Positions 5,374-41,272 of a stretch of DNA of 64,000 nucleotides are shown here, piece after piece. The DNA is from Armatimonadota bacterium. Lineage in GTDB: Bacteria > Armatimonadota > Fimbriimonadia > Fimbriimonadales > GBS-DC. The notes under the pieces were generated by a model, which had not been told where the DNA came from, did not search any database, and was given only the letters and a program-made list of their open reading frames with translations. Where the stretch lies: NCBI GenBank assembly GCA_037445735.1, contig JBBIJY010000001.1, forward strand, positions 32,001 to 96,000. Direction: 5' to 3'. Positions within the stretch are counted from its first letter, which is position 1; each line of letters begins with the position of its first letter. Both the position numbers and the translations under genes were made by a program.

Positions 5374-5931
5374 ATGGCTGTGGTCAAAGCCAGAACAATC
5401 AGCACTGCCGACTTCCTCAATCTGCCCGAGGAGGTGCATCAGAGCGCCTCCGTTGAGCTGCTCTATGGCGAGGTCATCGAGATGCCCAAGCCTTCGTGGG
5501 AGCATAACTATTTAGCCTCTTCGCTGATGGCAACGATTGCGCGACACGCACGCAAGCATCGGCTGGGCAAAGCCAGTACCGATTGTCTGGTGATTTTGGA
5601 TCAGGATTCAGGGGTCGCCCTGGCGCCCGATGTGGTCTATCTCTCCACCGAGAAGCTCGCCCAGATTCAGCACGGGCGCGTGTACGGCACGCCCGATCTG
5701 GTGGTGGAGGTCATCAGCCCCTCCTCTGAAATCCACGACCGCATCCACAAGCTGCCGATTTACCATCGCTATCGGGTGCCATGGGTGTGGCTGATTGAGC
5801 TGGAGCCATTGCATCTGGAGGAGTATCAGTGGAGCGAGGCGGGCTATATACGGGTGCAGGCGGTGGCGGGCGATGAGCCGTTTACCCCGCGCCTGTTCCC
5901 CCGGCTCACCTTTAAGTTGAGCGATTTATGA
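5374..5931 (+). CDS. Uma2/DUF820 family endonuclease-fold protein
   Basis: ELLYGEV, PSWEH, APDV, PDLVVEVISPS and KLPIY..YRVPWVWLI motifs; GGAGA RBS. Confidence 0.88.
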   Translation: MAVVKARTISTADFLNLPEEVHQSASVELLYGEVIEMPKPSWEHNYLASSLMATIARHARKHRLGKASTDCLVILDQDSGVALAPDVVYLSTEKLAQIQHGRVYGTPDLVVEVISPSSEIHDRIHKLPIYHRYRVPWVWLIELEPLHLEEYQWSEAGYIRVQAVAGDEPFTPRLFPRLTFKLSDL

Positions 5932-6908
5932 GCATGGCAACCGATGGCGTTCTGGGCTTCCATCATGCGACCGCAATCGCGGGCGAGGCGCAACCGAATG
6001 TGAACTTCTATGCGGGCGTGCTGGGACTGCGACTGGTCAAACGCTCCGTCAATCAGGATGCGCCCGAAGTCTATCACCTGTTCTACGCCGATGCACAGGG
6101 CACACCAGGCACTGACCTCACCTTCTTTCCCTGGCGAATCGTCGCACCCTTTCAGGCGGGCACGGGCACGATCCTGGAGCAGGGGCTGCTCGTGCCTGCT
6201 GACAGTCTGCCCTACTGGGCGCAACGCCTGCAGAAAGCAGGTGCGCACACAGAGCCAGTCACGGAATGGTTCGGCGAACCCGTGCTGCGCTTTCGCGACC
6301 CCGATGGACTGGCACTTGCCCTGATAGGCAGCGCTCACGAGCGACCGTTCAGCGTGTGGGAGCGCAGCCCCGTGCCCGCTGAGCATCAGATACGGGGGCT
6401 TTATACCGCCCGAATCGGTGTGGCGACGCATGGAGCAACCGAGCGCGTGCTGACCGAACTGCTGGGCTTCCGTAAAGTGGCTATGGAGGGCGACACGCAT
6501 CGTTTCGAGATCGGTGCAGCAGGCGAGGCAGGCTTCGGCTACCTCGAAGTGCAGGTACGCCCCGACCTGCCACGCGGACGCTGGGGACGCGGCGGCATGC
6601 ACCATCTCGCATGGCGCACGCGCGACGAGAGCCACCTGACAGCCCTGCGCGAGCAACTCCAGCAAATCGGACTGAAACCCACCCCGATTATCGACCGATT
6701 CTGGTTCCGTTCAGTCTACTTTGTGGAGCCAGGTGGCGTGCTGTTCGAGCTGGCGACCGACGGACCCGGCTTCGTCGTGGATGAAGAGAAGGCGCATCTG
6801 GGCGAGCAGCTGGTTCTACCGCCCTGGCTGGAACCACAACGCGAGCTGATTGAGGCAAAACTCCCGCCCATCGCCTATCCGCCCCCGCTGAACCCCTCTT
6901 CTCTTTAG
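5928..6908 (+). CDS. Ring-cleaving dioxygenase (MhqA/MhqO-like, VOC superfamily)
   Basis: GFHHATAI, FYAGVLGLRLVKRSVNQD, HHLAWR, DRFWFRSVYFVEPGGVLFELATDGPGF. Confidence 0.9.
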   Translation: MSMATDGVLGFHHATAIAGEAQPNVNFYAGVLGLRLVKRSVNQDAPEVYHLFYADAQGTPGTDLTFFPWRIVAPFQAGTGTILEQGLLVPADSLPYWAQRLQKAGAHTEPVTEWFGEPVLRFRDPDGLALALIGSAHERPFSVWERSPVPAEHQIRGLYTARIGVATHGATERVLTELLGFRKVAMEGDTHRFEIGAAGEAGFGYLEVQVRPDLPRGRWGRGGMHHLAWRTRDESHLTALREQLQQIGLKPTPIIDRFWFRSVYFVEPGGVLFELATDGPGFVVDEEKAHLGEQLVLPPWLEPQRELIEAKLPPIAYPPPLNPSSL

Positions 6909-6961
6909 AAACGCAGAGAAGCACCCCACACCAATAGCCAGGGCGCCCCACCGGGGGCAGT

Positions 6962-7003
6962 CCCCTCTCCCCGCACGCAGAGGAGAGGGGCTGAGAGTGA
7001 GGG
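6962..7003. repeat. REP-like hairpin between convergent genes
   Basis: CCCCTCTCC..GGAGAGGGG..GTGAGGG. Confidence 0.6.
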
Positions 7004-7025: not shown

Positions 7026-7952
7026 TTAGCCCGTGCCCATCAGCACCGTCTGCCACAGCCCGTAGCCGACCCCGTAGCGAGCACGCACACCGTAGAACAC
7101 CCTGTCACGCATAAACACGCTCTCGCTGGTCGGGCGATCGAGCGCGGCAAACTCCAGCGGCACATCCCGACGCTCCTGCAAAATCACACCCCGCACCGCC
7201 CGCGAAGTGTCCAGCAGGAACCACCTGTCCGCCTGCGCACCCGCAATATAGGGCGACACAATCAGGCGCAACTTGCCCTGCAACACATTCCGATACGGCG
7301 TGAAGTTGCCCGTCGTGTTCATCTGCACCACTACAGGCGACTCCAGCAGCTCCATCGCCAGCCACTGCAGCGCAGGACCCACCAGCAGCGTGTCAGGCAT
7401 AATCCCCATCGGGCGACCCCGATCATCCTTAATCAGCATCATCTGCGCCATCGCCTGCTGAAGGTTCTCGGTGTTCAACTCGCCCGTGAAGATGTTGCTC
7501 TGCAGTCCGCTCTCGCCCTCTTGATGCGCAGTGCTGAACAGGGGCTGACCGTCGTAGGCAGTGCCGCTCGTGCCCTCCAGCAGCGCGTTGATCACCAGCT
7601 GCTCCCGATGGCGCACCGCCTCCAGCGCAAGGTCCTGCACGCGCATCCGAATCATGTCGTACTGCTCATCCTCCAGCGCGCGGCGCTCCACTGCAATCGA
7701 CGCCTCCCACACCTGGTCGCTGATGGCATACTCGAACGCCCGCAAACCGACGGGCACACGCTCATCGATGAACTCGCGCATGGCGGGCACACTGCCCAGC
7801 CAGCCGTACTTCTGTGTGGGCAGATTCGTGCGCACCACCGTCGCGATGCGCGACACAAGGCTCGACTCACTCAGCTGGCGGTAGGCGCGGAAAAACTCCG
7901 TGCGCAACCCCGCCTCGATCAGCGACAGCAAATCACTTCGAACCAGTGGCAT
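7026..7952 (-). CDS. Mu-like phage major capsid protein (gpT family, HK97 fold)
   Basis: KYGWLGSVPAMREFI, WEASIAVERRALEDEQY, YDGQPLFSTAH, KDDRGRPMGI.PDTLLVGPAL, WFLLDTSR and YGVRARYGVGYGLWQ are hallmark gpT motifs; GAGGGAGG RBS. Confidence 0.92.
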   Translation of the reverse strand: MPLVRSDLLSLIEAGLRTEFFRAYRQLSESSLVSRIATVVRTNLPTQKYGWLGSVPAMREFIDERVPVGLRAFEYAISDQVWEASIAVERRALEDEQYDMIRMRVQDLALEAVRHREQLVINALLEGTSGTAYDGQPLFSTAHQEGESGLQSNIFTGELNTENLQQAMAQMMLIKDDRGRPMGIMPDTLLVGPALQWLAMELLESPVVVQMNTTGNFTPYRNVLQGKLRLIVSPYIAGAQADRWFLLDTSRAVRGVILQERRDVPLEFAALDRPTSESVFMRDRVFYGVRARYGVGYGLWQTVLMGTG

Positions 7953-7966
7953 CGGCTCTCCCTCCC

Positions 7967-8380
7967 TCAAACGGTGTGATTATCGATGCGAATGCGCACC
8001 GTCGTGCTGCTGGGCAACTCCACAACCGTGCCAACGAGAATGTTGTTCACGCTGGTCTTTGCCACCTCGTTATCGGAGACGGCTCGCACCACCGTGCCCA
8101 CATCGTTCTGGTTGAATGTGCCCGAACGGTTGTAGAGGAAAGTGCCCCGCTTGATGACACGGCACCGCTTCGCGCCATCGGCACCGCTGGCGTTATCGAC
8201 GCTTTCGAACGCCACGCCCACAAAGCGCAGGTTTGCCGTGTCGGACGCCGGCACCAGATAACCCGCGTTATCCAGACACACCAGCGCACCCTTCCAGATA
8301 CGCACGCCCCCCTTCACGGGATAGGCAATCAGCAGCCCTTCCTTCTCCTGGGCCTCATGGGGACCTGTGAGTGCAGGCAT
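7967..8380 (-). CDS. Phage capsid decoration/cement protein (DUF2190-like)
   Basis: YPVKGGVRIWKGALV...GYLVPA...FVGVA.ESVDN..GADG...DVG..V.AVSDNEV; lies between protease and major capsid genes; GGAGGTG RBS. Confidence 0.8.
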   Translation of the reverse strand: MPALTGPHEAQEKEGLLIAYPVKGGVRIWKGALVCLDNAGYLVPASDTANLRFVGVAFESVDNASGADGAKRCRVIKRGTFLYNRSGTFNQNDVGTVVRAVSDNEVAKTSVNNILVGTVVELPSSTTVRIRIDNHTV

Positions 8381-8392
8381 CGGCTCACCTCC

Positions 8393-9196
8393 TTACTGAC
8401 GGTTGGCAAGAATCTCGGCAGGGTCTAAATCGGGGAACACCTGCTGAAGCAACCGGGCTTCTTCGGGGCTGATCGAGGGCGTCTCGTAGGCAGGAATCGG
8501 CGCCAGCTCGCCCAGCAGGGGCTGGGACGGCAGCGCGTCCACAAAGCGTCGGAACAACTCGGCAATCGGCACGCTCTCACCGCTGAACACCACACTCGCC
8601 TCACCCTGCAACAGGATCGCCTCCGCAATCGGCGCCAGCGCAGGGGGCAACTTACCGCTCAGTGTCCAGCGCTGCGTCTGCTCGCGCACCTGCTGGGCAT
8701 GCAGCTCCCGCTCCAGCTGGCGCACACGCTCCCGCAACTGCTGAACCTCATCGGGAACAGGGGTCTCAATCGGTTCCATGCGCATCACCTCCATGATGGA
8801 GGGCAGCATCGAGCGGCTGAACAGGCGGGCACCGGGCACGCGCGGGCTGCCCGTGACGGACACCTCCACGATGCGCGCCCGATCGCGGCTCAAGCCCAGA
8901 CTCAAACCGCGCACGCGCAACCGCTGCAGCAGGGCGTCCGCCTCAGGGAGCAACGCGACCCGACCGAACAGCTCCGAACCCTGCCGCCAGACCGCCACCA
9001 GCCAGCCCAGCTGCACCGGCGACGGACGATGCTCCACCAGCAGCGGCACCGGCGCCTCAAACTGCGCCACCAGACGCTCCAGATCCGCCTCCGTCAGCAC
9101 CAGCCCGCGTTCGGGATAGACGCCCGCCTCCAGCAACTTCGCCGCGCGTACCACCCAGCGAGTCGACCCACCCATCCTGACAGTCGCCGCTCGCAT
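8393..9196 (-). CDS. Mu gpI-like prohead protease/scaffold
   Basis: N-terminal protease-like part (GVYPE, PLLVEH, LGWL, GLS, EVSVTGSP) followed by a coiled-coil scaffold (QQLRERVRQLERE...SGKLPPA); GGAGG RBS; directly upstream of the decoration and capsid genes. Confidence 0.75.
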   Translation of the reverse strand: MRAATVRMGGSTRWVVRAAKLLEAGVYPERGLVLTEADLERLVAQFEAPVPLLVEHRPSPVQLGWLVAVWRQGSELFGRVALLPEADALLQRLRVRGLSLGLSRDRARIVEVSVTGSPRVPGARLFSRSMLPSIMEVMRMEPIETPVPDEVQQLRERVRQLERELHAQQVREQTQRWTLSGKLPPALAPIAEAILLQGEASVVFSGESVPIAELFRRFVDALPSQPLLGELAPIPAYETPSISPEEARLLQQVFPDLDPAEILANRQ

Positions 9197-9258
9197 ACTG
9201 CCTCCACAACGGGCAGGGCACAAAACAGCAACACTGTCAACCCCCACACAGACAGTGA

Positions 9259-9424
9259 GGCTGCTCGAAAAATCCAACCAGAGGAAAGGATGTCCCTCAC
9301 TCCAACCCTCTACCCAGCGGGAAAGCTAACCCCTCACCCCTACCCTCTCCCCAGAGGGGAGAGGGTAGGGGTGAGGGGGCTTCACTCAGCAGGTCGATAT
9401 TATGCCCCGAATTTTCGAACACCC
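9259..9424. mobile_element. Putative MITE-like element containing REP-type hairpins
   Basis: Imperfect 16-bp terminal inverted repeats (GGCTGCTCGAAAAATC versus reverse complement GGGTGTTCGAAAATTC, 13/16). Internal CCCTCACCCC..GGGGTGAGGG hairpin. ACACAGAC present on both sides. Confidence 0.35.
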
Positions 9425-9584: not shown

Positions 9585-10490
9585 ATGAGACAGCATGGCA
9601 GAGGCTTTACCTTGATCGAGTTGCTGGTCGTGATCGCAATCATCGCCATTCTGGCGGCGATTCTGTTCCCGGTCTTCGCGCAGGCGCGCGAAAAAGCACG
9701 CCAGACCACCTGCACAAGCAACGCCAAGCAATGGGGACTTGCCTTCATGCAGTACATCAACGATTACGACGAGATCTTCCCCCTGAGCTTCGGACTGAAA
9801 ACGCCCGGTGCTCCTGCCAACATCTGGCAATATGGTCACCTCGTGCCACCCGACTGGTCTCGCTCACAGGGAGTACAGACGGGTCATTTCCGTGGCGTAT
9901 CCTCGCTGGCCCACTGGGCGAACACCGTGTATCCCTACATCAAGAACTACGGCATGTATGGCTGTCCCTCCGGACCCGAGGTTCGATTCCCACCGCTGGA
10001 GTCCGCCGGCGACTATAACAACCCCCTGAAGCCGCCTGTCGGGGTCAGCTACACCATGAACGGACTCCTGCATGACTACCCGATGGCAGGCATTGCGCGT
10101 CCAGCCCAGCTGCCGTTGCTGTGGGAGGGCCGCGGCAAGGCGCAGTCACTGGGTGTGATTGTATCGAACCCGGTCCTCCAGTGCAATCCTAACGACACGC
10201 GCCCGTGCCGCTACTTCAGCTGCACTTATGGCAATCCAGGCAACGCCTATCCGATCAGCGCAATGTTCGTGCTATCTGGCACGATGTGGATTCACAACAA
10301 AGGCGCGCTGTTCGTGATGTCCGACGGGCATGCCAAATGGCGCCGACTGGGCGCCCAGCTCGCACCTGACAACACCGACTGGCGCACAGACCCCTACACG
10401 GGCTACGATGCAAATGGCTTCCCTGGATTCTTCTGGTGGGACGGCTGCAACGCCTGGCTCTTCCGACCCGATTACGAGTTCAATATCTGA
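9585..10490 (+). CDS. Prepilin-type N-terminal cleavage/methylation, DUF1559 / H-X9-DG protein (copy 1)
   Basis: [57 protein letters not shown]. Confidence 0.92.
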
Positions 10491-10559
10491 ACTCATCACT
10501 GTGGTGGGGCGGGCGACCGAACCATGCCTGCCCCACCTCCATCCCGAGGGAGGTGAAGA

Positions 10560-10799
10560 ATGAAACAGCAGATACCGACGCCGATAGCGATTCTGATCAT
10601 CGCTGTCGTGGTTATCATCGCTGTCTTTATCGGCTGGCGGCTAATCAATCCACCAGAGCCGAAACCTGTCGGCATGCCCCCCGGTCAGCAAATGATGCCA
10701 CCCGCTACACCACCAGTAGCACCCCCTCAGCCGGGTCAACAGCCGCAGGGCGCCCCCCAGCGACCAACCCCTGGAGGACAACCAACCGGGGCGCTGTAG
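10560..10799 (+). CDS. Small single-pass membrane protein with Pro/Gln-rich tail
   Basis: Hydrophobic IAILIIAVVVIIAVFIGW then a PQ-rich tail; GGAGGTG RBS. Confidence 0.8.
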   Translation: MKQQIPTPIAILIIAVVVIIAVFIGWRLINPPEPKPVGMPPGQQMMPPATPPVAPPQPGQQPQGAPQRPTPGGQPTGAL

Positions 10800-10986
10800 A
10801 CTGTTATCAAAAGTATCGAGCACCCATCCTGCGGGGGACATGAGATCCCTCGCAGGGTTTTCACTAAGCAGGAATCGCACGGAAGTTGCTGTATAATAGA
10901 GATGACCCTTGCCGCCTGGCGGCGTCAGGCGTATCGTCAAGAATCATCCTTCGTGCTGGGCGGAGTCGGGGGAAGGAGGTCAGGCA

Positions 10987-11811
10987 ATGCGACATGGCAG
11001 AGGCTTTACCTTGATTGAGTTGCTGGTCGTGATCGCGATCATCGCCATTCTGGCGGCGATCCTGTTCCCGGTGTTCGCGCAGGCGCGCGAGAAGGGGCGC
11101 CAGGCAACCTGCGCCTCCAACATGAACCAGCTCGGCAAAGCGGTACTGATGTACGCCGCTGACAACGAGAACATTCTCCCGCCCAACCGCGTGGTGCTGG
11201 GTCCTTCCGGCGGGCTACCCGATGACCAGCGCAGGTTCTGGGCCGGACTGATCCAGCCCTATGTGAAGAACAAGGATATCGTCTTCTGTCCCAGTGGCAA
11301 AAAGCCGCCCTTTGAAATTGACCTCAACAACTGGTTCCATCGGGGCTGGCTCTCTATCGGCTATAATGCGCATATCGCAGGCTGGTACTGGATTGGCGGC
11401 GGCTTGCCCGGTGGGGCAGAAACCATCATGGTGCCCTCCCTTTCCTGGATCAGAACACCTGCCCAGTTTGTGATGCTGGCAGAGAGCGCGAATGGTCCCG
11501 CGCCGCCGCAGGGCAACTGCTTCGGCTCCTCCGCCGACAACAACGCCTATGGCGATTGTGAGGGCGGTCCGAACTTCCGAATGGTGATTCAAGGGCTGGC
11601 ACGCAGCCCCACTGTGGGCTACAGCCCCATCCTGGCACGCCATATGGGCGGGCTGAACATCACCCTGATGGACGGACACACCAAATGGTTCCGTCTGGAA
11701 GCCGTGATACCTTCTCCTCCACGCAACGCAGGCTGTGCCAACCCCGAAGAGCTGCGCGACTTCAACACCGCCAACCTGCGCTGGCTCATCTGGAACAACT
11801 GCGTGAGGTGA
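10987..11811 (+). CDS. Prepilin-type DUF1559 / H-X9-DG protein (copy 2)
   Basis: [10 protein letters not shown]..., [24 protein letters not shown]. Confidence 0.92.
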
Positions 11812-11815
11812 ACCG

Positions 11816-11989
11816 ATGCAAATCTTTCGGGAGAAACCGGCACTGGCAATCGGGCTATTAGTGATAGCCCTGCTGGCGCTCGTGATCAGCTGGTGGTTTT
11901 CCACGCGCCAGCTGAATCCGGGCGTCGAGGTGCCTCCCGTCAATCCGCCTCCTGCAACCAATCCGCCAAAAGAGGCAAGTCCTATCTGA
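11816..11989 (+). CDS. Small single-pass membrane protein with Pro-rich tail (57 aa, below the ORF-track cutoff)
   Basis: Manual translation MQIFREKPALAIGLLVIALLALVISWWFSTRQLNPGVEVPPVNPPPATNPPKEASPI*; GAGGTG RBS; paralog of 12848-13045. Confidence 0.8.
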   Translation: MQIFREKPALAIGLLVIALLALVISWWFSTRQLNPGVEVPPVNPPPATNPPKEASPI

Positions 11990-12001
11990 GGAGGAACAGC
12001 G

Positions 12002-12838
12002 ATGATGAGACGGCATGGTTTTACTCTGATCGAGTTGCTGGTCGTGATCGCGATCATCGCCATTCTGGCGGCGATCCTGTTCCCGGTGTTCGCGCAGGCG
12101 CGCGAGAAGGGGCGCCAGGCAACCTGCGCCTCCAACATGAACCAGCTCGGCAAAGCCATCCTCATGTACGCCGCCGACAACGAAGAAGTGCTGGTACCCA
12201 GCCGCCTCGTGCCCCAGAACAACCCGAACGATCCCGGGGTCAAAATCTGGCAGGAGCTGGTCGCACCCTATGTTAAAAACATCGATGTCTACTTCTGCCC
12301 GAACGGACGCCGGTTTGACGGTGGCGTCTTCATACCCAGCTGGGCGACTCGCGGCTGGCCCTCCATCGGCTACAACGCCCACATATCGGGCTGGTACTGG
12401 GTCGGTGGCAGTCTGCCAGGCAATCCCGATGAAACCCTCATGGTGCCCAATCGCTCCATGCTCAAAAAACCCGCCCAGTTCGTGCTACTGGCAGATTCCC
12501 CCAACGGACCAACGGGCGCACCCCAGAACTGCCGCGGCTACCTCACCGATAACAACTGGTACGGCGGCTGCAGCGGGGACGGCACCGGGCGGCAACACCG
12601 CACGGACATCACCTCCTATGTGGGCGTGGGCATCATGGCACGCCATTCGAACGGGCTAAACATCGGCTTCGCCGATGGACACACCAAATGGTTCCGCCTC
12701 GAACAGGTACTGCCCTATACGCCGCAGCAGTACCAGGCAATCTATGGCAATCGTCCGTGTCGCTTTGTCGACGAATACCGCGATTTCAACCCAGCTAAAA
12801 CACACTGGGTCATCTTCAATACCTGCAATCCTGATTAG
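12002..12838 (+). CDS. Prepilin-type DUF1559 / H-X9-DG protein (copy 3)
   Basis: [10 protein letters not shown]..., [14 protein letters not shown]; close paralog of copy 2. Confidence 0.92.
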
Positions 12839-12847
12839 GAGGTTGCT

Positions 12848-13045
12848 ATGCAGACCTTTCGCGACAAACCGATCCTGGCATGGGTGTTGCTGATGGTGGC
12901 GCTGGCAGCGCTCTTCATCAGTTATTACTTCTTCATGCGCCCCTCGGAACCCGCCGTGCCAGCCGCCACAGGTGAGCAGCCGGCAGCACCCCCACCCGGC
13001 GGTCAGCAACCCGCTTCATCAGCAGGACAAACCGTGCCTTACTAA
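12848..13045 (+). CDS. Small single-pass membrane protein with Pro/Gln-rich tail
   Basis: [29 protein letters not shown] plus Pro-rich tail; AGGAGG RBS. Confidence 0.8.
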
Positions 13046-13064
13046 CTCTCTGGAGGTGAATCAA

Positions 13065-14000
13065 ATGAGAAAATCGGGCTTCACCTTGATTGAGTTGCTG
13101 GTCGTGATCGCGATCATCGCCATTCTGGCGGCGATCCTGTTCCCCGTGTTCGCACGCGCACGCGACAGCGCCGTGCGCACTCAGTGCCTCAATAACATCA
13201 AGCAAATCTGCACAGGCGCCCTCATGTACCTCCAAGACTACGACGAGCAGATGCCGCTGGCTATCAACATCCCGCACGGAATCAACGAGCCGACCAACCC
13301 GAACACGATCGGTCCCTATATGAACCTCTGGGTGCGCGTCAACCCCTGTTTCATCAACCCTCAGGGCAACGCCTGTCTCAGCTCTGGCGAGCTGCGCCAG
13401 CTACGCTACCTGCCCATCGGACAAACCACCCAGAACGCGCCGAGCGCCCCTCCCGTCGGCAACCCACCACGCTACCCGCTCTACTTCCCCGCCCAGGTCG
13501 ATCCCTATATCAAGGCGGGCGCCAGCGGCACCCAGATGACAACCCGCAAAGTGAAAACGCTGTGGGCATGCCCTGCCGACTCAACCTCCGTCATCGGGCT
13601 GGGCTCCGAAACCTCGCTCTTCGAGCTGAGCGGGTTGAACCACTTCCGCGTCATCGGACACGACTACATGTATAACACCTGGCTCATCTACACCTACACC
13701 GATCGCCTGCGCGGTGGCAATCCCCAGCAGTGGACGCTCAAGCTGCGTTCATTGGGCGCGATTGCACGCCCTGCCGACATCATTTTGGTGTTTGATGCTT
13801 ACCCCATGTGGCATGGCGAGTCGCGCGCTCCGAACGGCGGTCCCATCCCGGATAACTGGAATGTCGCCTTCGTGGACGGACACGCCAAGAACCTGCCCCA
13901 CGCCGTGTTTATGGACCAGTTCCCCGGCGTAATCGGGGGCGGCGGCAACAAACTGCGCCTGAACCAGAACCCGGAAGCGGACGATCCGAACACCCCATGA
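13065..14000 (+). CDS. Prepilin-type DUF1559 protein (copy 4)
   Basis: [10 protein letters not shown]..., DYDE, CPAD, WH...[18 protein letters not shown]. Confidence 0.9.
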
Positions 14001-31528: not shown

Positions 31529-32254
31529 CTATAGCGGCACCGCCTGAATGCGGCGCAGCGTGCGGGCGAACAGCCGCGCGATTACCTCGGTCGCCTGCGC
31601 CATCACTTCGGTAACCGCCGAATGATCCAGGGGTTGGTCGGTCAGCCCTGTGCCCGGATTGGTGACGACCGCCACCGCCGCATAGTGGATCCCTGCCTCA
31701 CGGCACAGAATCGCCTCTGGCACGACGGTCATGCCAATCACATCGCCGCCGAGCATGCGAAACATGCGGATTTCGGCAGGTGTCTCGTAGCGCGGTCCCG
31801 ACGCGCACACATACACCCCCTCCGATTGCACGCTGAGTCCCAGCTCACCTGCCGATTGGAGCAGCGCCTCGCGCAGCAGCGGGCTGAACGGTTGCGAAAA
31901 ATCGGTATGCACCACCTCATGCTCAAACAGCGTATGAACCGTGCGCGTGAAATCGAGAAAATCGCTGAGAATCACGAGCGTGCCAGGGACCCAATCAGGG
32001 CGCAGGGAGCCGACGGCAGCCGTTGCCAGCACCGCCTGCACCCCCTGCTCCCGCAACAGTTGCACATGGCGACGATGGTCAATCTGGTGCGGAGGCACAC
32101 GATGCCCCTTGCTGTGGCGCGGCAACAACAGCACCGGGCAACCCTCCAGCTGACCGTGCAGCAGATAGACCTCACCTGGCAATGCCTGCTCCTGCTGCAA
32201 CACAAAGCCCGGCAGCTGCTGCACGCCGGTGCCACCGATGATCGCGGCTTTCAT
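31529..32254 (-). CDS. MTAP-family purine nucleoside phosphorylase
   Basis: IIGGTG, PRH..GH..PPH, GPRYETPAE, IGMT, VTN. Confidence 0.9.
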   Translation of the reverse strand: MKAAIIGGTGVQQLPGFVLQQEQALPGEVYLLHGQLEGCPVLLLPRHSKGHRVPPHQIDHRRHVQLLREQGVQAVLATAAVGSLRPDWVPGTLVILSDFLDFTRTVHTLFEHEVVHTDFSQPFSPLLREALLQSAGELGLSVQSEGVYVCASGPRYETPAEIRMFRMLGGDVIGMTVVPEAILCREAGIHYAAVAVVTNPGTGLTDQPLDHSAVTEVMAQATEVIARLFARTLRRIQAVPL

Positions 32255-35469: not shown

Positions 35470-36327
35470 CTACGCGGCAACAACCTGCCGCATGGCAGCG
35501 ACCGCCTCGAAGACACGCGCAAGAATGACTTCGCGGGTCTCGTCAGGCAGGCAAATCAGCTGCTCGGCTTCGGAAGGGATCGGTGGTAGAGCAAAGCCCT
35601 GATCGCTGCGGCTCTGTTGATAGCTCCACTGGTCTGCTACCATCAGGCAAGCCGTCGGTATGCGGAGGTCGCCATCGGGCAGAGCGGGTGCATGATGATT
35701 GCCGATAAGATGCACCAGCAACGGAGGCAGCTGCCAGCCGTCGGCAATCAGCGCGCCCACCTCCGCGTGATCCATGCCCAGCATCGCGCCCTCCACCTCA
35801 TGACGGGTTCGCTGTGCATCCGCCGCGCGCAACACCTGCTGATACTCTCTGGGGAAACGAGTGTGCAAAAACAGGATGCCGATGTCGTGTAAAAGCCCCG
35901 CCATAAAGGCGTTCTCCGCCTGACGGATGCATCGCCCCTGCGCCAGCGCGATTTCGCGGGCAATCCCGGCGCAGGCGAACGAATGCTCCCACAGCTCCAG
36001 CTCCAGCGGGCTGGGCACCCGACCGTGGCGCAGCGCCATAAACGCCGACACGCCAAGCACCAGATTCTTGACCGTGTGGAAGCCCAGCACAATCACTGCC
36101 TGCTTCACCGTGCTGATGGTGCGCGTCAGCCCGTAATAAGCGGAGTTCGCCAGATGTAGCACCTTCACCGTGAGGGCGGGATCGGTTGTGATGAGGCGCT
36201 CTACCTGCTCAGCGGTCGCGTTCTCGCTCTCCACCAGCTCGACCAGCTGCGTCACCAGCCCTGGCAGCGCGGGCAGCTCGTGAATCGCGCGCTCAATGTC
36301 CCTGCGCACATCACTCGCCATAATCAT
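35470..36327 (-). CDS. HDOD domain protein
   Basis: LPALP, DPALT..VL.LANS.YYG, AGLLHDIG, DHAEVG...W.LP. Confidence 0.92.
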   Translation of the reverse strand: MIMASDVRRDIERAIHELPALPGLVTQLVELVESENATAEQVERLITTDPALTVKVLHLANSAYYGLTRTISTVKQAVIVLGFHTVKNLVLGVSAFMALRHGRVPSPLELELWEHSFACAGIAREIALAQGRCIRQAENAFMAGLLHDIGILFLHTRFPREYQQVLRAADAQRTRHEVEGAMLGMDHAEVGALIADGWQLPPLLVHLIGNHHAPALPDGDLRIPTACLMVADQWSYQQSRSDQGFALPPIPSEAEQLICLPDETREVILARVFEAVAAMRQVVAA

Positions 36328-36472
36328 AGTGCCCCGATGTATGATGCAGATTCAGGGCTATTATCGGACGGTTGCGGGATTCTCTGCAGGGCGGCGGTCA
36401 TTCCCTCTTGACTGGCTCCTGCGCAAAATGTGGTATAATAGAGGTGCGGCTGAGGCCGCGAAAGGAGGTTCG

Positions 36473-38368
36473 ATGATGCAACGCAATGGCTGGTTTCGCT
36501 GGATGGGGCTGATCAGCATCGCCCTCTGTGTGAGCGCGCCGATGCTGGCGCAGAAGGGGGTACCGTCTCCCAAAGACCAGTTCGACAAGCCGCGTCCGAC
36601 GCTCATCGTGGAACCGGTGAATGTCGGTCCGCGCAACCCGGCTCTCTATGCTCCCTATAACGGGGGCGATTTCTCCCCGGCAAGCGGCGATGTGGTTGTC
36701 GTCGATGTAACGGGCACACCCAGCTATGATAGCGCGGGTGCATCGTGCAATGTGCGGCTCACTATCCCCGCACCCGCTGGTAGAGATAACTTCAACGGCA
36801 TCGGCTGGGATGTGTGTCTGACGGCAACCTCACCCAGCTGGCGCTGCGAAATCGCCGTGCTGATCACCAATGTGAACGGCGAAGGCTATATTCTGCGACC
36901 GGGCGCTGTTGATTGCTCCGCTGGCTCCGGTTGCTACTCCAGCGGCGCCGTGAACAAGCTGTGCGATGTGTACGGCTTCCCCGATCTGCCGCTACCCGAC
37001 GGCAATCTCTACCTGGAGTTCTTCGAAACCTTTGATGACTTCGGTGGCTGCGGGCAGGACGGCAACTGGGACAGCGGCACGCTCTCCCTGCAGTTTGGTA
37101 CCACCCCGCCATTCACGGGCTGGGACGAGGCAGTCAACGGTGGTGGAGACGCTGGTGATACCCCTGAAACCGCTCAGAGCACTGGCAGCGGCGCGCTGAC
37201 CGCCATTCGGGGCGATCTGGAAGCCGACGGCGTGGATATGTACGCTATCTACATTTCCGATCCCGCCCTCTTCAGCGCATCGCTCCGCTGCGGCGCCCTG
37301 TTCGACACCCAGCTCTTCCTGTTCGACGCGAACGGCAAGGGTGTGGTGCACAACGACGACACCTTCGGGCTGATCTCTTACATCGATAACTCCACCTTCT
37401 GTATTCCAGGTCCGGGTGTCTACTACCTTGCCGTGAGCCGATATAACCGCGACCCGGTGGGCTGTGGTGGTGGGCTCATCTGGAACAACACACCCTTCAC
37501 AGAAATCCGTTGTCCCGATGGTCCCGAATCGACCTCGCGCGTGTCAGGCTGGTCGGGCTCTACAGGCGCCGCTGGCACCTACACCATCGTCCTGCAGGGC
37601 GCCGAGGGCGCCAGTGCGGGTGATCCCGACGATTGTCCGCCACCACCGATCGATCGCTGGGACGAGACCGCTAACGGCGGCGGCGATGCGGGCGATCTGC
37701 CCTCCACCGCGCAGGCTGTTTCGCGACCCGAAGCAGAACCCTGCGCAACGGCGGTCACACGCATCACGGGCAACCGAGCAAGCACCACCGACGCCGACAT
37801 GTACATCATCTGCATCACCGACCCGAACAGCTTCGTCGCCAGCACGGTGGGCGGCGCGGGCTTCGATACCCAGCTGTTCCTGTTCAAGTGCGACGGCACG
37901 GGCGTGGTGCATAACGACGACTCCAGCGCAACTGTCCAATCCCAGATCGACAACTCCACAGGCTGTATCACCGAGCCGGGCACCTACCTGCTGGCAATCA
38001 CGGGCTACAACCAGGATCCGGTCGACGCCGGCGGGCAGCTCATCTGGAACAACACGCCCTTCGGTGAGGTGCGCTGTCCCGATGGTCCGGGCGCAGGAAA
38101 CCCGATAGCAGGCTGGACAGGTGATGGCGACTCCGGTATCTACACCATCCAGCTGCAGGGCGCCTACTTTGTCAGCCCGGCAGGCTGCGTACCTGGCTGT
38201 CAGGGCGATGTGAACAGGGATGGCGTGGTGGATGACGCCGACCTGTTAGCTGTGCTGTTCGCCTTCGGCAACTTCTGCTCGGGTTGCCCCGAGGACCTGA
38301 ACGGCGACAACATGGTCGACGACGCCGACCTGCTGATCGTGCTGTTCAACTTCGGCTGCGGCGGCTAA
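36473..38368 (+). CDS. Secreted protein with two DVUA0089/PPC-like repeats and a C-terminal dockerin-like domain (copy 1)
   Basis: Signal peptide; two repeats [15 protein letters not shown]...FDTQLFLF...HNDD...[47 protein letters not shown]. Confidence 0.8.
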   Translation: MMQRNGWFRWMGLISIALCVSAPMLAQKGVPSPKDQFDKPRPTLIVEPVNVGPRNPALYAPYNGGDFSPASGDVVVVDVTGTPSYDSAGASCNVRLTIPAPAGRDNFNGIGWDVCLTATSPSWRCEIAVLITNVNGEGYILRPGAVDCSAGSGCYSSGAVNKLCDVYGFPDLPLPDGNLYLEFFETFDDFGGCGQDGNWDSGTLSLQFGTTPPFTGWDEAVNGGGDAGDTPETAQSTGSGALTAIRGDLEADGVDMYAIYISDPALFSASLRCGALFDTQLFLFDANGKGVVHNDDTFGLISYIDNSTFCIPGPGVYYLAVSRYNRDPVGCGGGLIWNNTPFTEIRCPDGPESTSRVSGWSGSTGAAGTYTIVLQGAEGASAGDPDDCPPPPIDRWDETANGGGDAGDLPSTAQAVSRPEAEPCATAVTRITGNRASTTDADMYIICITDPNSFVASTVGGAGFDTQLFLFKCDGTGVVHNDDSSATVQSQIDNSTGCITEPGTYLLAITGYNQDPVDAGGQLIWNNTPFGEVRCPDGPGAGNPIAGWTGDGDSGIYTIQLQGAYFVSPAGCVPGCQGDVNRDGVVDDADLLAVLFAFGNFCSGCPEDLNGDNMVDDADLLIVLFNFGCGG

Positions 38369-38909: not shown

Positions 38910-39231
38910 GCGGGCTGGGCACCCGACCGTGGCGCAGCGCCATAAACGCCGACACGCCAAGCACCAGATTCTTGACCGTGTGGAAGCCCAGCACAATCAC
39001 TGCCTGCTTCACCGTGCTGATGGTGCGCGTCAGCCCGTAATAAGCGGAGTTCGCCAGATGTAGCACCTTCACCGTGAGGGCGGGATCGGTTGTGATGAGG
39101 CGCTCTACCTGCTCAGCGGTCGCGTTCTCGCTCTCCACCAGCTCGACCAGCTGCGTCACCAGCCCTGGCAGCGCGGGCAGCTCGTGAATCGCGCGCTCAA
39201 TGTCCCTGCGCACATCACTCGCCATAATCAT
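38910..39231 (-). pseudogene. Truncated second copy of the HDOD gene (5' part)
   Basis: Identical to 36006-36327; broken at the junction. Confidence 0.8.
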
Positions 39232-39376
39232 AGTGCCCCGATGTATGATGCAGATTCAGGGCTATTATCGGACGGTTGCGGGATTCTCTGCAGGGCGGCG
39301 GTCATTCCCTCTTGACTGGCTCCTGCGCAAAATGTGGTATAATAGAGGTGCGGCTGAGGCCGCGAAAGGAGGTTCG

Positions 39377-41272
39377 ATGATGCAACGCAATGGCTGGTTT
39401 CGCTGGATGGGGCTGATCAGCATCGCCCTCTGTGTGAGCGCGCCGATGCTGGCGCAGAAGGGGGTACCGTCTCCCAAAGACCAGTTCGACAAGCCGCGTC
39501 CGACGCTCATCGTGGAACCGGTGAATGTCGGTCCGCGCAACCCGGCTCTCTATGCTCCCTATAACGGGGGCGATTTCTCCCCGGCAAGCGGCGATGTGGT
39601 TGTCGTCGATGTAACGGGCACACCCAGCTATGATAGCGCGGGTGCATCGTGCAATGTGCGGCTCACTATCCCCGCACCCGCTGGTAGAGATAACTTCAAC
39701 GGCATCGGCTGGGATGTGTGTCTGACGGCAACCTCACCCAGCTGGCGCTGCGAAATCGCCGTGCTGATCACCAATGTGAACGGCGAAGGCTATATTCTGC
39801 GACCGGGCGCTGTTGATTGCTCCGCTGGCTCCGGTTGCTACTCCAGCGGCGCCGTGAACAAGCTGTGCGATGTGTACGGCTTCCCCGATCTGCCGCTACC
39901 CGACGGCAATCTCTACCTGGAGTTCTTCGAAACCTTTGATGACTTCGGTGGCTGCGGGCAGGACGGCAACTGGGACAGCGGCACGCTCTCCCTGCAGTTT
40001 GGTACCACCCCGCCATTCACGGGCTGGGACGAGGCAGTCAACGGTGGTGGAGACGCTGGTGATACCCCTGAAACCGCTCAGAGCACTGGCAGCGGCGCGC
40101 TGACCGCCATTCGGGGCGATCTGGAAGCCGACGGCGTGGATATGTACGCTATCTACATTTCCGATCCCGCCCTCTTCAGCGCATCGCTCCGCTGCGGCGC
40201 CCTGTTCGACACCCAGCTCTTCCTGTTCGACGCGAACGGCAAGGGTGTGGTGCACAACGACGACACCTTCGGGCTGATCTCTTACATCGATAACTCCACC
40301 TTCTGTATTCCAGGTCCGGGTGTCTACTACCTTGCCGTGAGCCGATATAACCGCGACCCGGTGGGCTGTGGTGGTGGGCTCATCTGGAACAACACACCCT
40401 TCACAGAAATCCGTTGTCCCGATGGTCCCGAATCGACCTCGCGCGTGTCAGGCTGGTCGGGCTCTACAGGCGCCGCTGGCACCTACACCATCGTCCTGCA
40501 GGGCGCCGAGGGCGCCAGTGCGGGTGATCCCGACGATTGTCCGCCACCACCGATCGATCGCTGGGACGAGACCGCTAACGGCGGCGGCGATGCGGGCGAT
40601 CTGCCCTCCACCGCGCAGGCTGTTTCGCGACCCGAAGCAGAACCCTGCGCAACGGCGGTCACACGCATCACGGGCAACCGAGCAAGCACCACCGACGCCG
40701 ACATGTACATCATCTGCATCACCGACCCGAACAGCTTCGTCGCCAGCACGGTGGGCGGCGCGGGCTTCGATACCCAGCTGTTCCTGTTCAAGTGCGACGG
40801 CACGGGCGTGGTGCATAACGACGACTCCAGCGCAACTGTCCAATCCCAGATCGACAACTCCACAGGCTGTATCACCGAGCCGGGCACCTACCTGCTGGCA
40901 ATCACGGGCTACAACCAGGATCCGGTCGACGCCGGCGGGCAGCTCATCTGGAACAACACGCCCTTCGGTGAGGTGCGCTGTCCCGATGGTCCGGGCGCAG
41001 GAAACCCGATAGCAGGCTGGACAGGTGATGGCGACTCCGGTATCTACACCATCCAGCTGCAGGGCGCCTACTTTGTCAGCCCGGCAGGCTGCGTACCTGG
41101 CTGTCAGGGCGATGTGAACAGGGATGGCGTGGTGGATGACGCCGACCTGTTAGCTGTGCTGTTCGCCTTCGGCAACTTCTGCTCGGGTTGCCCCGAGGAC
41201 CTGAACGGCGACAACATGGTCGACGACGCCGACCTGCTGATCGTGCTGTTCAACTTCGGCTGCGGCGGCTAA
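39377..41272 (+). CDS. Secreted DVUA0089/PPC-like repeat plus dockerin-like protein (copy 2)
   Basis: Protein identical to 36473-38368. Confidence 0.75.

Follow-up and report, generated by a model that had tools for sequence, protein, structure and literature searches.

Only a few lineages are known to have domesticated phage-derived particles that transport host DNA, and, to our knowledge, all of these particles are tailed; the one used for comparison here is the gene transfer agent (GTA) of Rhodobacter capsulatus (RcGTA; PDB 6tba). Phage-inducible chromosomal islands that form capsids (cf-PICIs) are described, in the accessible part of one report, as releasing tail-less, DNA-filled capsids that are later joined to foreign tails (10.1101/2025.02.11.637232). 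In Thaumarchaeota, loci derived from Caudovirales comprise, according to the available part of their description, modules for morphogenesis but neither replication genes nor attachment sites and were suggested to be perhaps GTA-like (PMC6563490). Here we analyze three Mu-like phage head genes in a 64,000-nucleotide stretch of DNA (the window; positions 32001 to 96000 of contig C1) from the genome of an Armatimonadota bacterium (G000; 2.78 Mb, 59 contigs, 99.2% complete). An earlier reading of the window's sequence (the first-pass annotation) had proposed these genes as either one locus of a dispersed GTA-like system or a protein nanocompartment derived from Mu gpT.

We lean toward the first of these proposals: as read from sequence, the three genes would be the shell locus of a host-fixed, phage-derived, GTA-like system for building heads and packaging DNA, split over at least four loci. 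Unlinked portal, terminase, and adaptor/stopper loci, their co-occurrence, the selection acting on them, and their trees support this reading. Comparisons were made within an order sample (G000 and 40 relatives from the same order; 41 genomes), a class sample (201 genomes, one of them, G148, unpublished and with nothing resting on it), and a phylum sample (251 genomes). A literature search, with supplementary tables outside its scope, returned no description of this system in Armatimonadota, and in the accessible part of the Fimbriimonas ginsengisoli genome paper the sole mention of a prophage concerns one of 45.5 kb.

Three Mu-like head genes form a shell locus

Positions 7026 to 9277 of the window hold three intact, closely packed open reading frames (ORFs) in Mu head order, with host genes on both sides:

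8393..9196, minus strand: head protease/scaffold gene (Mu gpI-like); 267 amino acids (aa) with the ATG at 9196 as start; in its longest form the ORF reaches 9277
7967..8380, minus strand: head decoration/cement protein gene; 137 aa, with AAGGAGG before the ATG
7026..7952, minus strand: gene for the major capsid protein, of the Mu gpT family; 308 aa with the ATG at 7952 as start (in its longest form the ORF starts from the TTG at 7970)

The first-pass description of intact minus-strand ORFs in this order with strong Shine-Dalgarno sequences was confirmed for the ORFs, their families, and the boxes. The capsid protein matched Pfam Mu-like_gpT (PF10124; E, 5.9e-61; 206.8 bits versus a cut-off of 20.1) and phrog_371 (4.4e-65); its Pfam matches were phage capsid families only (i.e., Mu-like_gpT and Phage_capsid_4), and its gene is single-copy in G000. 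The product of the middle gene matched phrog_1731, "virion structural protein" (7.9e-28), and Pfam Phage_cement_2 at 23.8 bits, slightly below the cut-off of 24. The scaffold protein gave a weak match to the C-terminal part of the phrog_976 profile, "head maturation protease" (5.6e-5); its orthologue in the relative G033 matched the protease part of the same profile at 1.5e-12, and His and Ser positions in the N-terminal domain are invariant across 22 genomes. The ATG at 9196, with GGAGG 5 nucleotides before it, is the likely start of the scaffold gene. Most capsid orthologues in family f1 start at the equivalent Met, and most are 309 aa long; since these starts and the GGGAGGGAG box agree, we take the ATG at 7952 (308 aa) as the capsid start.

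Portal, terminase, and neck genes lie at unlinked loci

The first-pass annotation had recognized no portal or terminase gene. This holds within the 64-kb window, where no further phage gene was seen and where the only matches of a Mu-like phage proteome on C1 were the decoration and capsid genes. Both genes are, however, present elsewhere in G000, and the genome-wide search that had been proposed for unlinked portal and terminase genes found them on C14 and C12. Together with a neck operon on C25, the head and packaging genes of G000 thus occupy at least four unlinked loci (C1, C14, C12, and C25):

C14:1702-2844: Mu-type portal gene; 380 aa, Pfam Portal_Mu (PF06074) at 1.2e-68 (232.3 bits versus a cut-off of 23.9)
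C12, about 77.7-78.9 kb: large terminase gene; 405 aa, with ATPase and RNaseH-like nuclease domains
C25:1616-2920: small neck operon ending in genes for a head-to-tail adaptor and a stopper

The portal gene is directly followed by FGGY kinase and glutamine synthetase genes. The terminase, located with a query from G033 (a relative with a clustered arrangement), matched Terminase_6N (1.3e-9), Terminase_6C (7.3e-9), and phrog_2 (1.7e-41). Its Walker A motif (GRRWGKT) is identical in all 16 aligned terminases, which also share Walker B (DEAA), the coupling motif STPxG, and three acidic positions of the nuclease (a few of these residues being conserved only in ≥85% of the sequences). The motifs suggest that the enzyme is probably active.

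The neck operon, which lies between an M48 peptidase gene and a large ORF whose N-terminal sequence reads as that of leucyl-tRNA synthetase, was discovered by tblastn with 27 proteins of the G033 and G032 clusters against G000. Pfam and PHROGs gave nothing significant for c98, c132, and c105 of this operon. Structures of the 132-aa adaptor and the 105-aa stopper were modeled with AlphaFold2 (24-sequence alignment and predicted local distance difference test [pLDDT] of 84 for the adaptor; 9-sequence alignment and pLDDT of 89 for the stopper) and compared with known folds in a VIA-align wide search. The adaptor model resembled the P74-26 neck (Z, 7.9), HK97 gp6 (7.2), the Mu gp36-type neck subunit (6.2), and RcGTA 6tba_2A (5.3), and its top matches also included Bxb1, YqbG, and SaPI1; most of the top 41 rows were neck or adaptor chains. 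The stopper model resembled FCWL1 (9.8), Pam3 (9.6), the R4C stopper (8.7), PBSX XkdH (8.5), and RcGTA 6tba_3A (7.7).

Two small genes, c98 and c110, lie 5' of the adaptor gene (C25:2276-2920), and both products have hydrophobic N-termini; c98 is probably about 68 aa long from an internal MMK start. For c110, matches were below threshold (e.g., DUF6744 at 22.9 bits versus a cut-off of 27), and the nearest Atlas clusters, a weak lead, were unnamed viral proteins (scores of 0.91 to 0.92). These two products could be membrane or lysis-related proteins or head-completion parts.

The unlinked genes bear on the second first-pass proposal, an encapsulin-like protein nanocompartment that no longer handles DNA. 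The fold family is related to HK97, and a lone shell locus among host genes does resemble encapsulin operons. The shell protein of G000 does not, however, belong to the encapsulin family and matches phage capsid families only; terminase, portal, adaptor, and stopper genes co-occur with the shell gene, and the terminase keeps its catalytic motifs. All-versus-all clustering of ORFs at 26 loci from 12 genomes gave no conserved cargo gene beside the shell genes and no further conserved neighbor of any kind. We therefore regard a nanocompartment as very improbable. Since terminase, portal, adaptor, and stopper have all been retained, the expected product would be sealed, DNA-filled heads instead of a protein compartment.

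The head genes are widespread and under purifying selection

Within the order sample, the capsid gene was detected in 35 of the 41 genomes, the portal gene in 37, the terminase gene in 34 (including G040, where the count is a 41-residue fragment only), and the adaptor gene in 31. A tally of these four marker searches places all four in 28 genomes. None was found in G007, G030, and G039, and G040 has the terminase fragment only; because these four genomes span three families, joint loss happened more than once. Most other gaps concern fragmented assemblies or divergent sequences (e.g., the adaptor of G035 was found only with a different query). The fragment in G040 (G040:C27:16370-16492; 61% identity), the sole trace of the system found there, looks like a decaying remnant after loss.

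Capsid genes were found in 126 of the 201 genomes of the class sample (50 of 67 genera) and in 76 of the 251 genomes of the phylum sample, with intact frames in nearly all carriers in both. Capsid identity to G000 was 87 to 98% in the genus, 61 to 79% in the family, and 37 to 55% in the order, where two partial matches reach 64 to 66%. The nearest capsids in a phage collection were only about 35% identical.

Phylogenetic trees were built for the capsid (32 rows: 26 genomes from the order, 5 from other classes, and 1 phage), the portal (29 rows), and the terminase (21 rows), the last two by quick searches only. The number of family-label changes equaled the minimum in every tree (capsid, 7; portal, 8; terminase, 7). 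Every multimember family formed one group in the capsid and portal trees, and in the terminase tree f3, considered by itself, needs two changes. Pairwise ratios of nonsynonymous to synonymous substitution rates (dN/dS; Nei-Gojobori) were calculated from full-length genes (capsid, 26 genomes; portal, 23; decoration, 24; scaffold, 22; terminase, 16). Within genera, dN/dS was 0.10 for the capsid, 0.07 to 0.13 for the portal, 0.11 to 0.12 for the decoration protein, 0.19 to 0.28 for the scaffold, and 0.11 for the terminase. The comparison of the gpT tree with taxonomy and the dN/dS calculation that the first-pass annotation had called for thus recovered the host families and a capsid value of 0.10. 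The head genes are under purifying selection, and their trees match host taxonomy.

These data also bear on whether the genes are inert leftovers of an old Mu-like prophage, rearranged and so far undecayed. Prophage tools do label such regions as "incomplete" prophages, and the lineage rearranges often; Table 2 of a hot-spring study, in the part accessible, lists for a Fimbriimonadales genome a 7.1-kb "Portal; head; capsid" incomplete prophage that lacks an attachment site (PMC8597652). Intact frames in nearly all carriers, dN/dS of about 0.1, conserved catalytic motifs, three families in which all markers were lost together, and a fully host-like composition make prophage leftovers scarcely credible. 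An intact Mu-like prophage was also considered and rejected, with host genes flanking each locus, tail families negative, and dispersal confirmed in a closed genome.

Additional or divergent copies were observed in some genomes. G012 has a second capsid gene (G012:C1:678325-679197; 35% identity) and G035 an extra terminase gene (G035:C2:748900-750213; about 39% identical to the G000 terminase); these may be separate prophages or duplications. Family f2 (G032:C17, G025, and G029) has a clustered version, with a 520-aa large terminase that groups with the phage outgroup in the tree. Downstream of its capsid gene are large genes that lack annotation (747 and 822 aa).

A compact ancestral cluster breaks apart stepwise

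Three complete genomes from other classes (G341, G333, and G409) carry the genes as one cluster (about 7 kb in G341) in the order helix-turn-helix (HTH) protein, terminase, portal, scaffold, decoration, capsid, at least one small gene, adaptor, and stopper. The HTH protein before the terminase, conserved in all three, is possibly the small terminase. Flanking genes tested there encode a creatininase, a CBM9 protein, an FG-GAP protein, and a PilT-like ATPase, which are host-like, while several match no family; there was no integrase among them, and no recognizable tail genes follow the clusters. Within the order, G033 has terminase, portal, protease/scaffold, decoration, capsid, and small genes, with two host-type genes inserted (a ParA-like gene and one of 258 aa, which separate the portal gene from the protease gene; L038:15858-17876). 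In G333, a GNAT acetyltransferase gene is inserted between the decoration and capsid genes (L085:9034-9642). In other classes, genes for cell-wall hydrolases stand not far from neck or portal genes: G409 has one of the VanY/Peptidase_M15 type (L084:13713-14213), G333 one of the NlpC/P60 type (L085:12765-13592), and G330 an M15-like tblastn match (L088, about 11048-11374); a release (lysis) function in the system is possible for them.

In families f5 and f3, terminase and portal form one locus and scaffold through stopper another. The basal f1 genera (G004 and G008) still have the neck genes directly after the capsid gene, and in genera g1, g3, g4, and g5 the neck genes have moved off. G012, a single contig of 2.99 Mb, has four loci at 1.233, 1.412, 2.273, and 2.556 Mb (i.e., 0.18 to 1.3 Mb apart). 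In G002, a congener of G000, the portal and head loci are 20 kb apart on one contig, which is a mosaic of G000 blocks from C14, C2, C45, and C1; synteny between the two genomes ends at C1:39033, the 3' end of the capsid gene, at the hairpin at window positions 6955 to 6990. Given the mosaic in G002 and the single contig of G012, the scatter is a real, continuing rearrangement and not a misassembly. The compact cluster is the ancestral form, and the module breaks apart stepwise within the order.

The first-pass annotation had allowed for a module that was absent from relatives, close only to intact prophages, under relaxed selection, or created by misassembly. Instead, the module is present in 35 of the 41 genomes of the order, its nearest phage relatives are about 35% identical, selection is unrelaxed, and G012 rules out misassembly.

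Searches for tail, small terminase, and mobility genes

The annotated proteins of the Mu-like myophage Villandry matched nothing in G000 but the portal, decoration, and capsid genes, save for a single weak baseplate match of 60 residues (E, 0.004). Divergent tail genes at other loci are possible, the probe set being limited. No conserved small gene was present upstream of the terminase at the nine loci inspected. G000 has only two tyrosine recombinases, neither on C1 nor on the contigs of the head loci, and no integrase or replication gene was found adjoining its scattered loci. The Mu-like phage queries, which omitted the phage transposase protein, detected no transposase.

Several results weigh against a host-fixed, GTA-like system. 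In G000, genome-wide Pfam searches were negative for Phage_sheath_1, Baseplate_J, PhageMin_Tail, Sipho_tail, and Phage_Mu_F (the gpF-type head morphogenesis protein), while the control genomes gave matches to these probes. A profile of three HTH-protein sequences, searched against the six-frame translation of G000 for a small terminase, gave a best E of 1. The scaffold protein had no Pfam protease match and is a protease only putatively. The structural matches of the adaptor and stopper convince through the theme that they have in common and not through their Z scores, which are moderate (5 to 10), and Foldseek against the PDB gave no match for the adaptor model at E ≤ 0.001. Inheritance is not perfectly vertical: f2 carries a nonorthologous terminase (a query from f2 matched f2 only, 4 of 41 genomes, versus 34 of 41 for the G033 query). 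The capsid of f18, from another class, is 65 to 68% identical to that of G000, versus about 53% for families of the same order; in the portal tree, unlike this capsid closeness to f1, f18 falls among the other classes. Beyond the genus, median dN/dS values are 0.13 to 0.36, and these are inflated because dS is near saturation there. Finally, free phage relatives are possible. A single-protein query of IMG/VR found no relative, and a query with a 17-sequence alignment found 80 loci, the closest 48 to 53% identical and including short contigs with the same head-only order; the contigs with capsids about 49% identical could be such phages. Two longer contigs (L096 and L097) have extra downstream genes, which PHROGs did not identify as tail genes.

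Proposed particle and its delivery

In a GTA-like system of this kind, the scaffold/protease and the capsid protein would assemble a procapsid on the portal ring, and the terminase would cut DNA and pump it in. The decoration protein would cement the expanded shell, and the adaptor and stopper would close the portal to give sealed, DNA-filled, tail-less heads. Because the genes are scattered with no integrase or replication gene beside them, the particle cannot carry its own genes as one unit; since they are not transmissible in this way, it most likely carries host DNA, with a GTA-like function. We infer from the gene set that particles may form, contain host DNA, and bring it to other cells. 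Three delivery routes remain: unrecognized tail genes, docking on the tails of other phages, and competence-like uptake of DNA from released heads.

Tentatively, these routes allow an ancient, host-owned, head-only device whose capsids would dock on the tails of passing phages, as an immobilized and domesticated version of cf-PICI tail piracy, or enter through the type IV pilus-like machinery in which the cells abound; we consider this doubtful but worth stating. Such head-only capsids may also serve as an antiphage decoy that diverts phage tails.

Docking is equally central to tail piracy by a fixed descendant of a capsid-forming satellite (cf-PICI-like), whose sealed heads would join the tails of infecting or coresident phages, spreading host DNA and perhaps lowering phage yield. 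The gene set is like the cf-PICI morphogenesis module, as far as the accessible part of its description goes (10.1101/2022.09.08.507074), with a small terminase (TerS)-like protein in the other classes, and the tail-docking parts (adaptor and stopper) are conserved while no tail genes were found. Even the compact clusters, however, have no integrase, replication, or induction genes beside them, the genes are scattered and vertically inherited, unlike described satellites, and no helper phage is known; we judge this origin unlikely.

If unrecognized tail genes were the answer, the system would be a complete GTA with tail, lysis, and regulatory genes at more unlinked loci, too divergent to be detected here. 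Known GTAs do have further loci away from the main cluster, and tail tube and fiber proteins are poorly detectable by sequence. Small conserved genes stand beside the neck genes (c98 and c110 in G000; 171-aa and 89-aa genes in G341), and the cell-wall hydrolase genes of G409 and G333 lie close to neck or portal genes, with an M15-like match in G330. Against this, the neck genes of the compact clusters are followed by convergent or host-type genes, the ORF clustering yielded no further conserved neighbor, and genome-wide searches with five tail/assembly Pfam families and the tail set of one Mu-like phage were negative. A complete GTA therefore seems distinctly unlikely, and the GTA-like head-building and packaging system remains our preferred reading.

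Surroundings of the loci

The host genes that the first-pass annotation had placed on either side of the shell locus are indeed there. On the capsid side lies a convergent Glyoxalase/dioxygenase-superfamily gene (5928-6908), beyond which are genes for a Uma2 nuclease, an OGG-type glycosylase, and a homogentisate-dioxygenase-like protein. On the scaffold side is a divergent pilin-like gene (9585-10490; N_methyl and DUF1559), the first of four successive plus-strand N_methyl pilin-like paralogues (9585-14000); three of the four match DUF1559 as well. On C12, the terminase locus likewise has pilin-like genes at its flanks (L067:5532-9027); because the family has many copies in the genome, the closeness of such genes to these loci may be chance. 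Repetitive extragenic palindromic (REP)-type hairpins had been reported on both sides:

9331..9377, no strand: REP-like G+C-rich hairpin with a 20-pair stem; the scaffold gene lies on one side of it and the divergent pilin-like gene on the other
6955..6990, no strand: shorter hairpin, similar in sequence, that separates the capsid stop from the convergent dioxygenase-superfamily gene

The strict pattern of the family to which the first belongs (CCCYCTCCCC, short loop, GGGGAGRGGG) matches 248 times in the 2.78 Mb of G000; the second is a looser variant missed by this pattern, and the REP assignment stands in full for the former only. REP-like copies border the head locus and are also present upstream of the C25 neck operon; in many spurious ORFs, their translation appears as "PSPLWGEG"-type strings.

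The composition of the module is host-like, as had been noted (0 ACGT, 0 CTAG, and 1 GGCC; genome ACGT rate, 0.06 per kb). G000 strongly avoids ACGT and CTAG (ACGT, 0.06 per kb in the genome; in the window, about 0.03 per kb for each of the two), and GGCC is low (0.2 to 0.4 per kb in the window and in G000); this scarcity suggests an old restriction pressure or a repair bias. On C12, about 2.5 kb upstream of the terminase, a gene block (L067:13400-19500) has a third-position G+C content of 0.42 to 0.63, versus about 0.8 elsewhere, and was probably acquired recently. Upstream of the loci in G000 and G012, the sequence, read by eye with no formal motif search, showed generic TTGAC-like -35 boxes only. 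Elsewhere in the window, two 690-aa ORFs (36296-38368 and 39200-41272), about 2.9 kb apart and with identically placed nested ORFs (37464-38108 and 40368-41012), look like a tandem duplication of a large gene.

Comparison with known systems

One orthologous head-and-packaging set can be followed here across a poorly studied phylum, at stages from a compact cluster to four loci. The domestication proposed here would be GTA-like, head-only, and derived from a Mu-like phage, and it would span the phylum while dispersing progressively. If the particles package DNA, the range of GTA-like systems would extend to Armatimonadota, the set would be a natural example of the stepwise break-up of a viral module after domestication, and the question of how a tail-less capsid delivers DNA would become testable. 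A head-only device, if true, would be a third route of GTA-like exchange, distinct from tailed GTAs and mobile satellites. Since prophage finders label such regions as "incomplete prophage" (PMC8597652, in its accessible part), similar systems may hide in many genomes.

The head module is shared with Mu-like phages. The capsid belongs to Mu-like_gpT and the portal to Portal_Mu, while the gpF gene that adjoins the portal gene in the Mu head module was not found beside it in G000. The Clostridium phage Villandry (ON453902.1) has the same order of portal, protease/scaffold, phrog_1731 protein, gpT capsid, adaptor, and neck genes; its capsid is about 35% identical to that of G000, and its terminase and portal are 587 and 522 aa long, versus 405 and 380 aa in G000. 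Unlike Mu-like phages, G000 has no detected gpF, sheath, tube, tape measure, or baseplate genes.

The resemblance to cf-PICIs, as far as the accessible descriptions go, lies in having their own terminase, portal, protease, capsid, and adaptor/connector but no tail genes; the TerS-like HTH gene extends it to the other classes, this gene not having been found in G000. In the same descriptions, each cf-PICI is one mobile island that has modules for integrase, regulation, and replication and packages itself, whereas the Armatimonadota genes are scattered and vertically inherited.

RcGTA is likewise a set of phage-derived structural genes that are fixed in the host, inherited, and under purifying selection, located at more than one locus, with no integrase or replication genes found, and the adaptor and stopper models resemble its components 6tba_2A and 6tba_3A (Z, 5.3 and 7.7). 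In contrast to RcGTA, the Armatimonadota set has no detected tail, tape measure, or fiber genes and, in G000, no detected small terminase; its head genes are themselves spread over up to four loci. Because the capsid (PF10124) and the portal (PF06074) belong to Mu families, it would represent an independent domestication in another phylum than that of RcGTA. The thaumarchaeal loci (PMC6563490), in the available part of their description, are contiguous, include tailed-virus modules, and are highly divergent from one another, whereas the Armatimonadota genes form one orthologous set that is dispersing.

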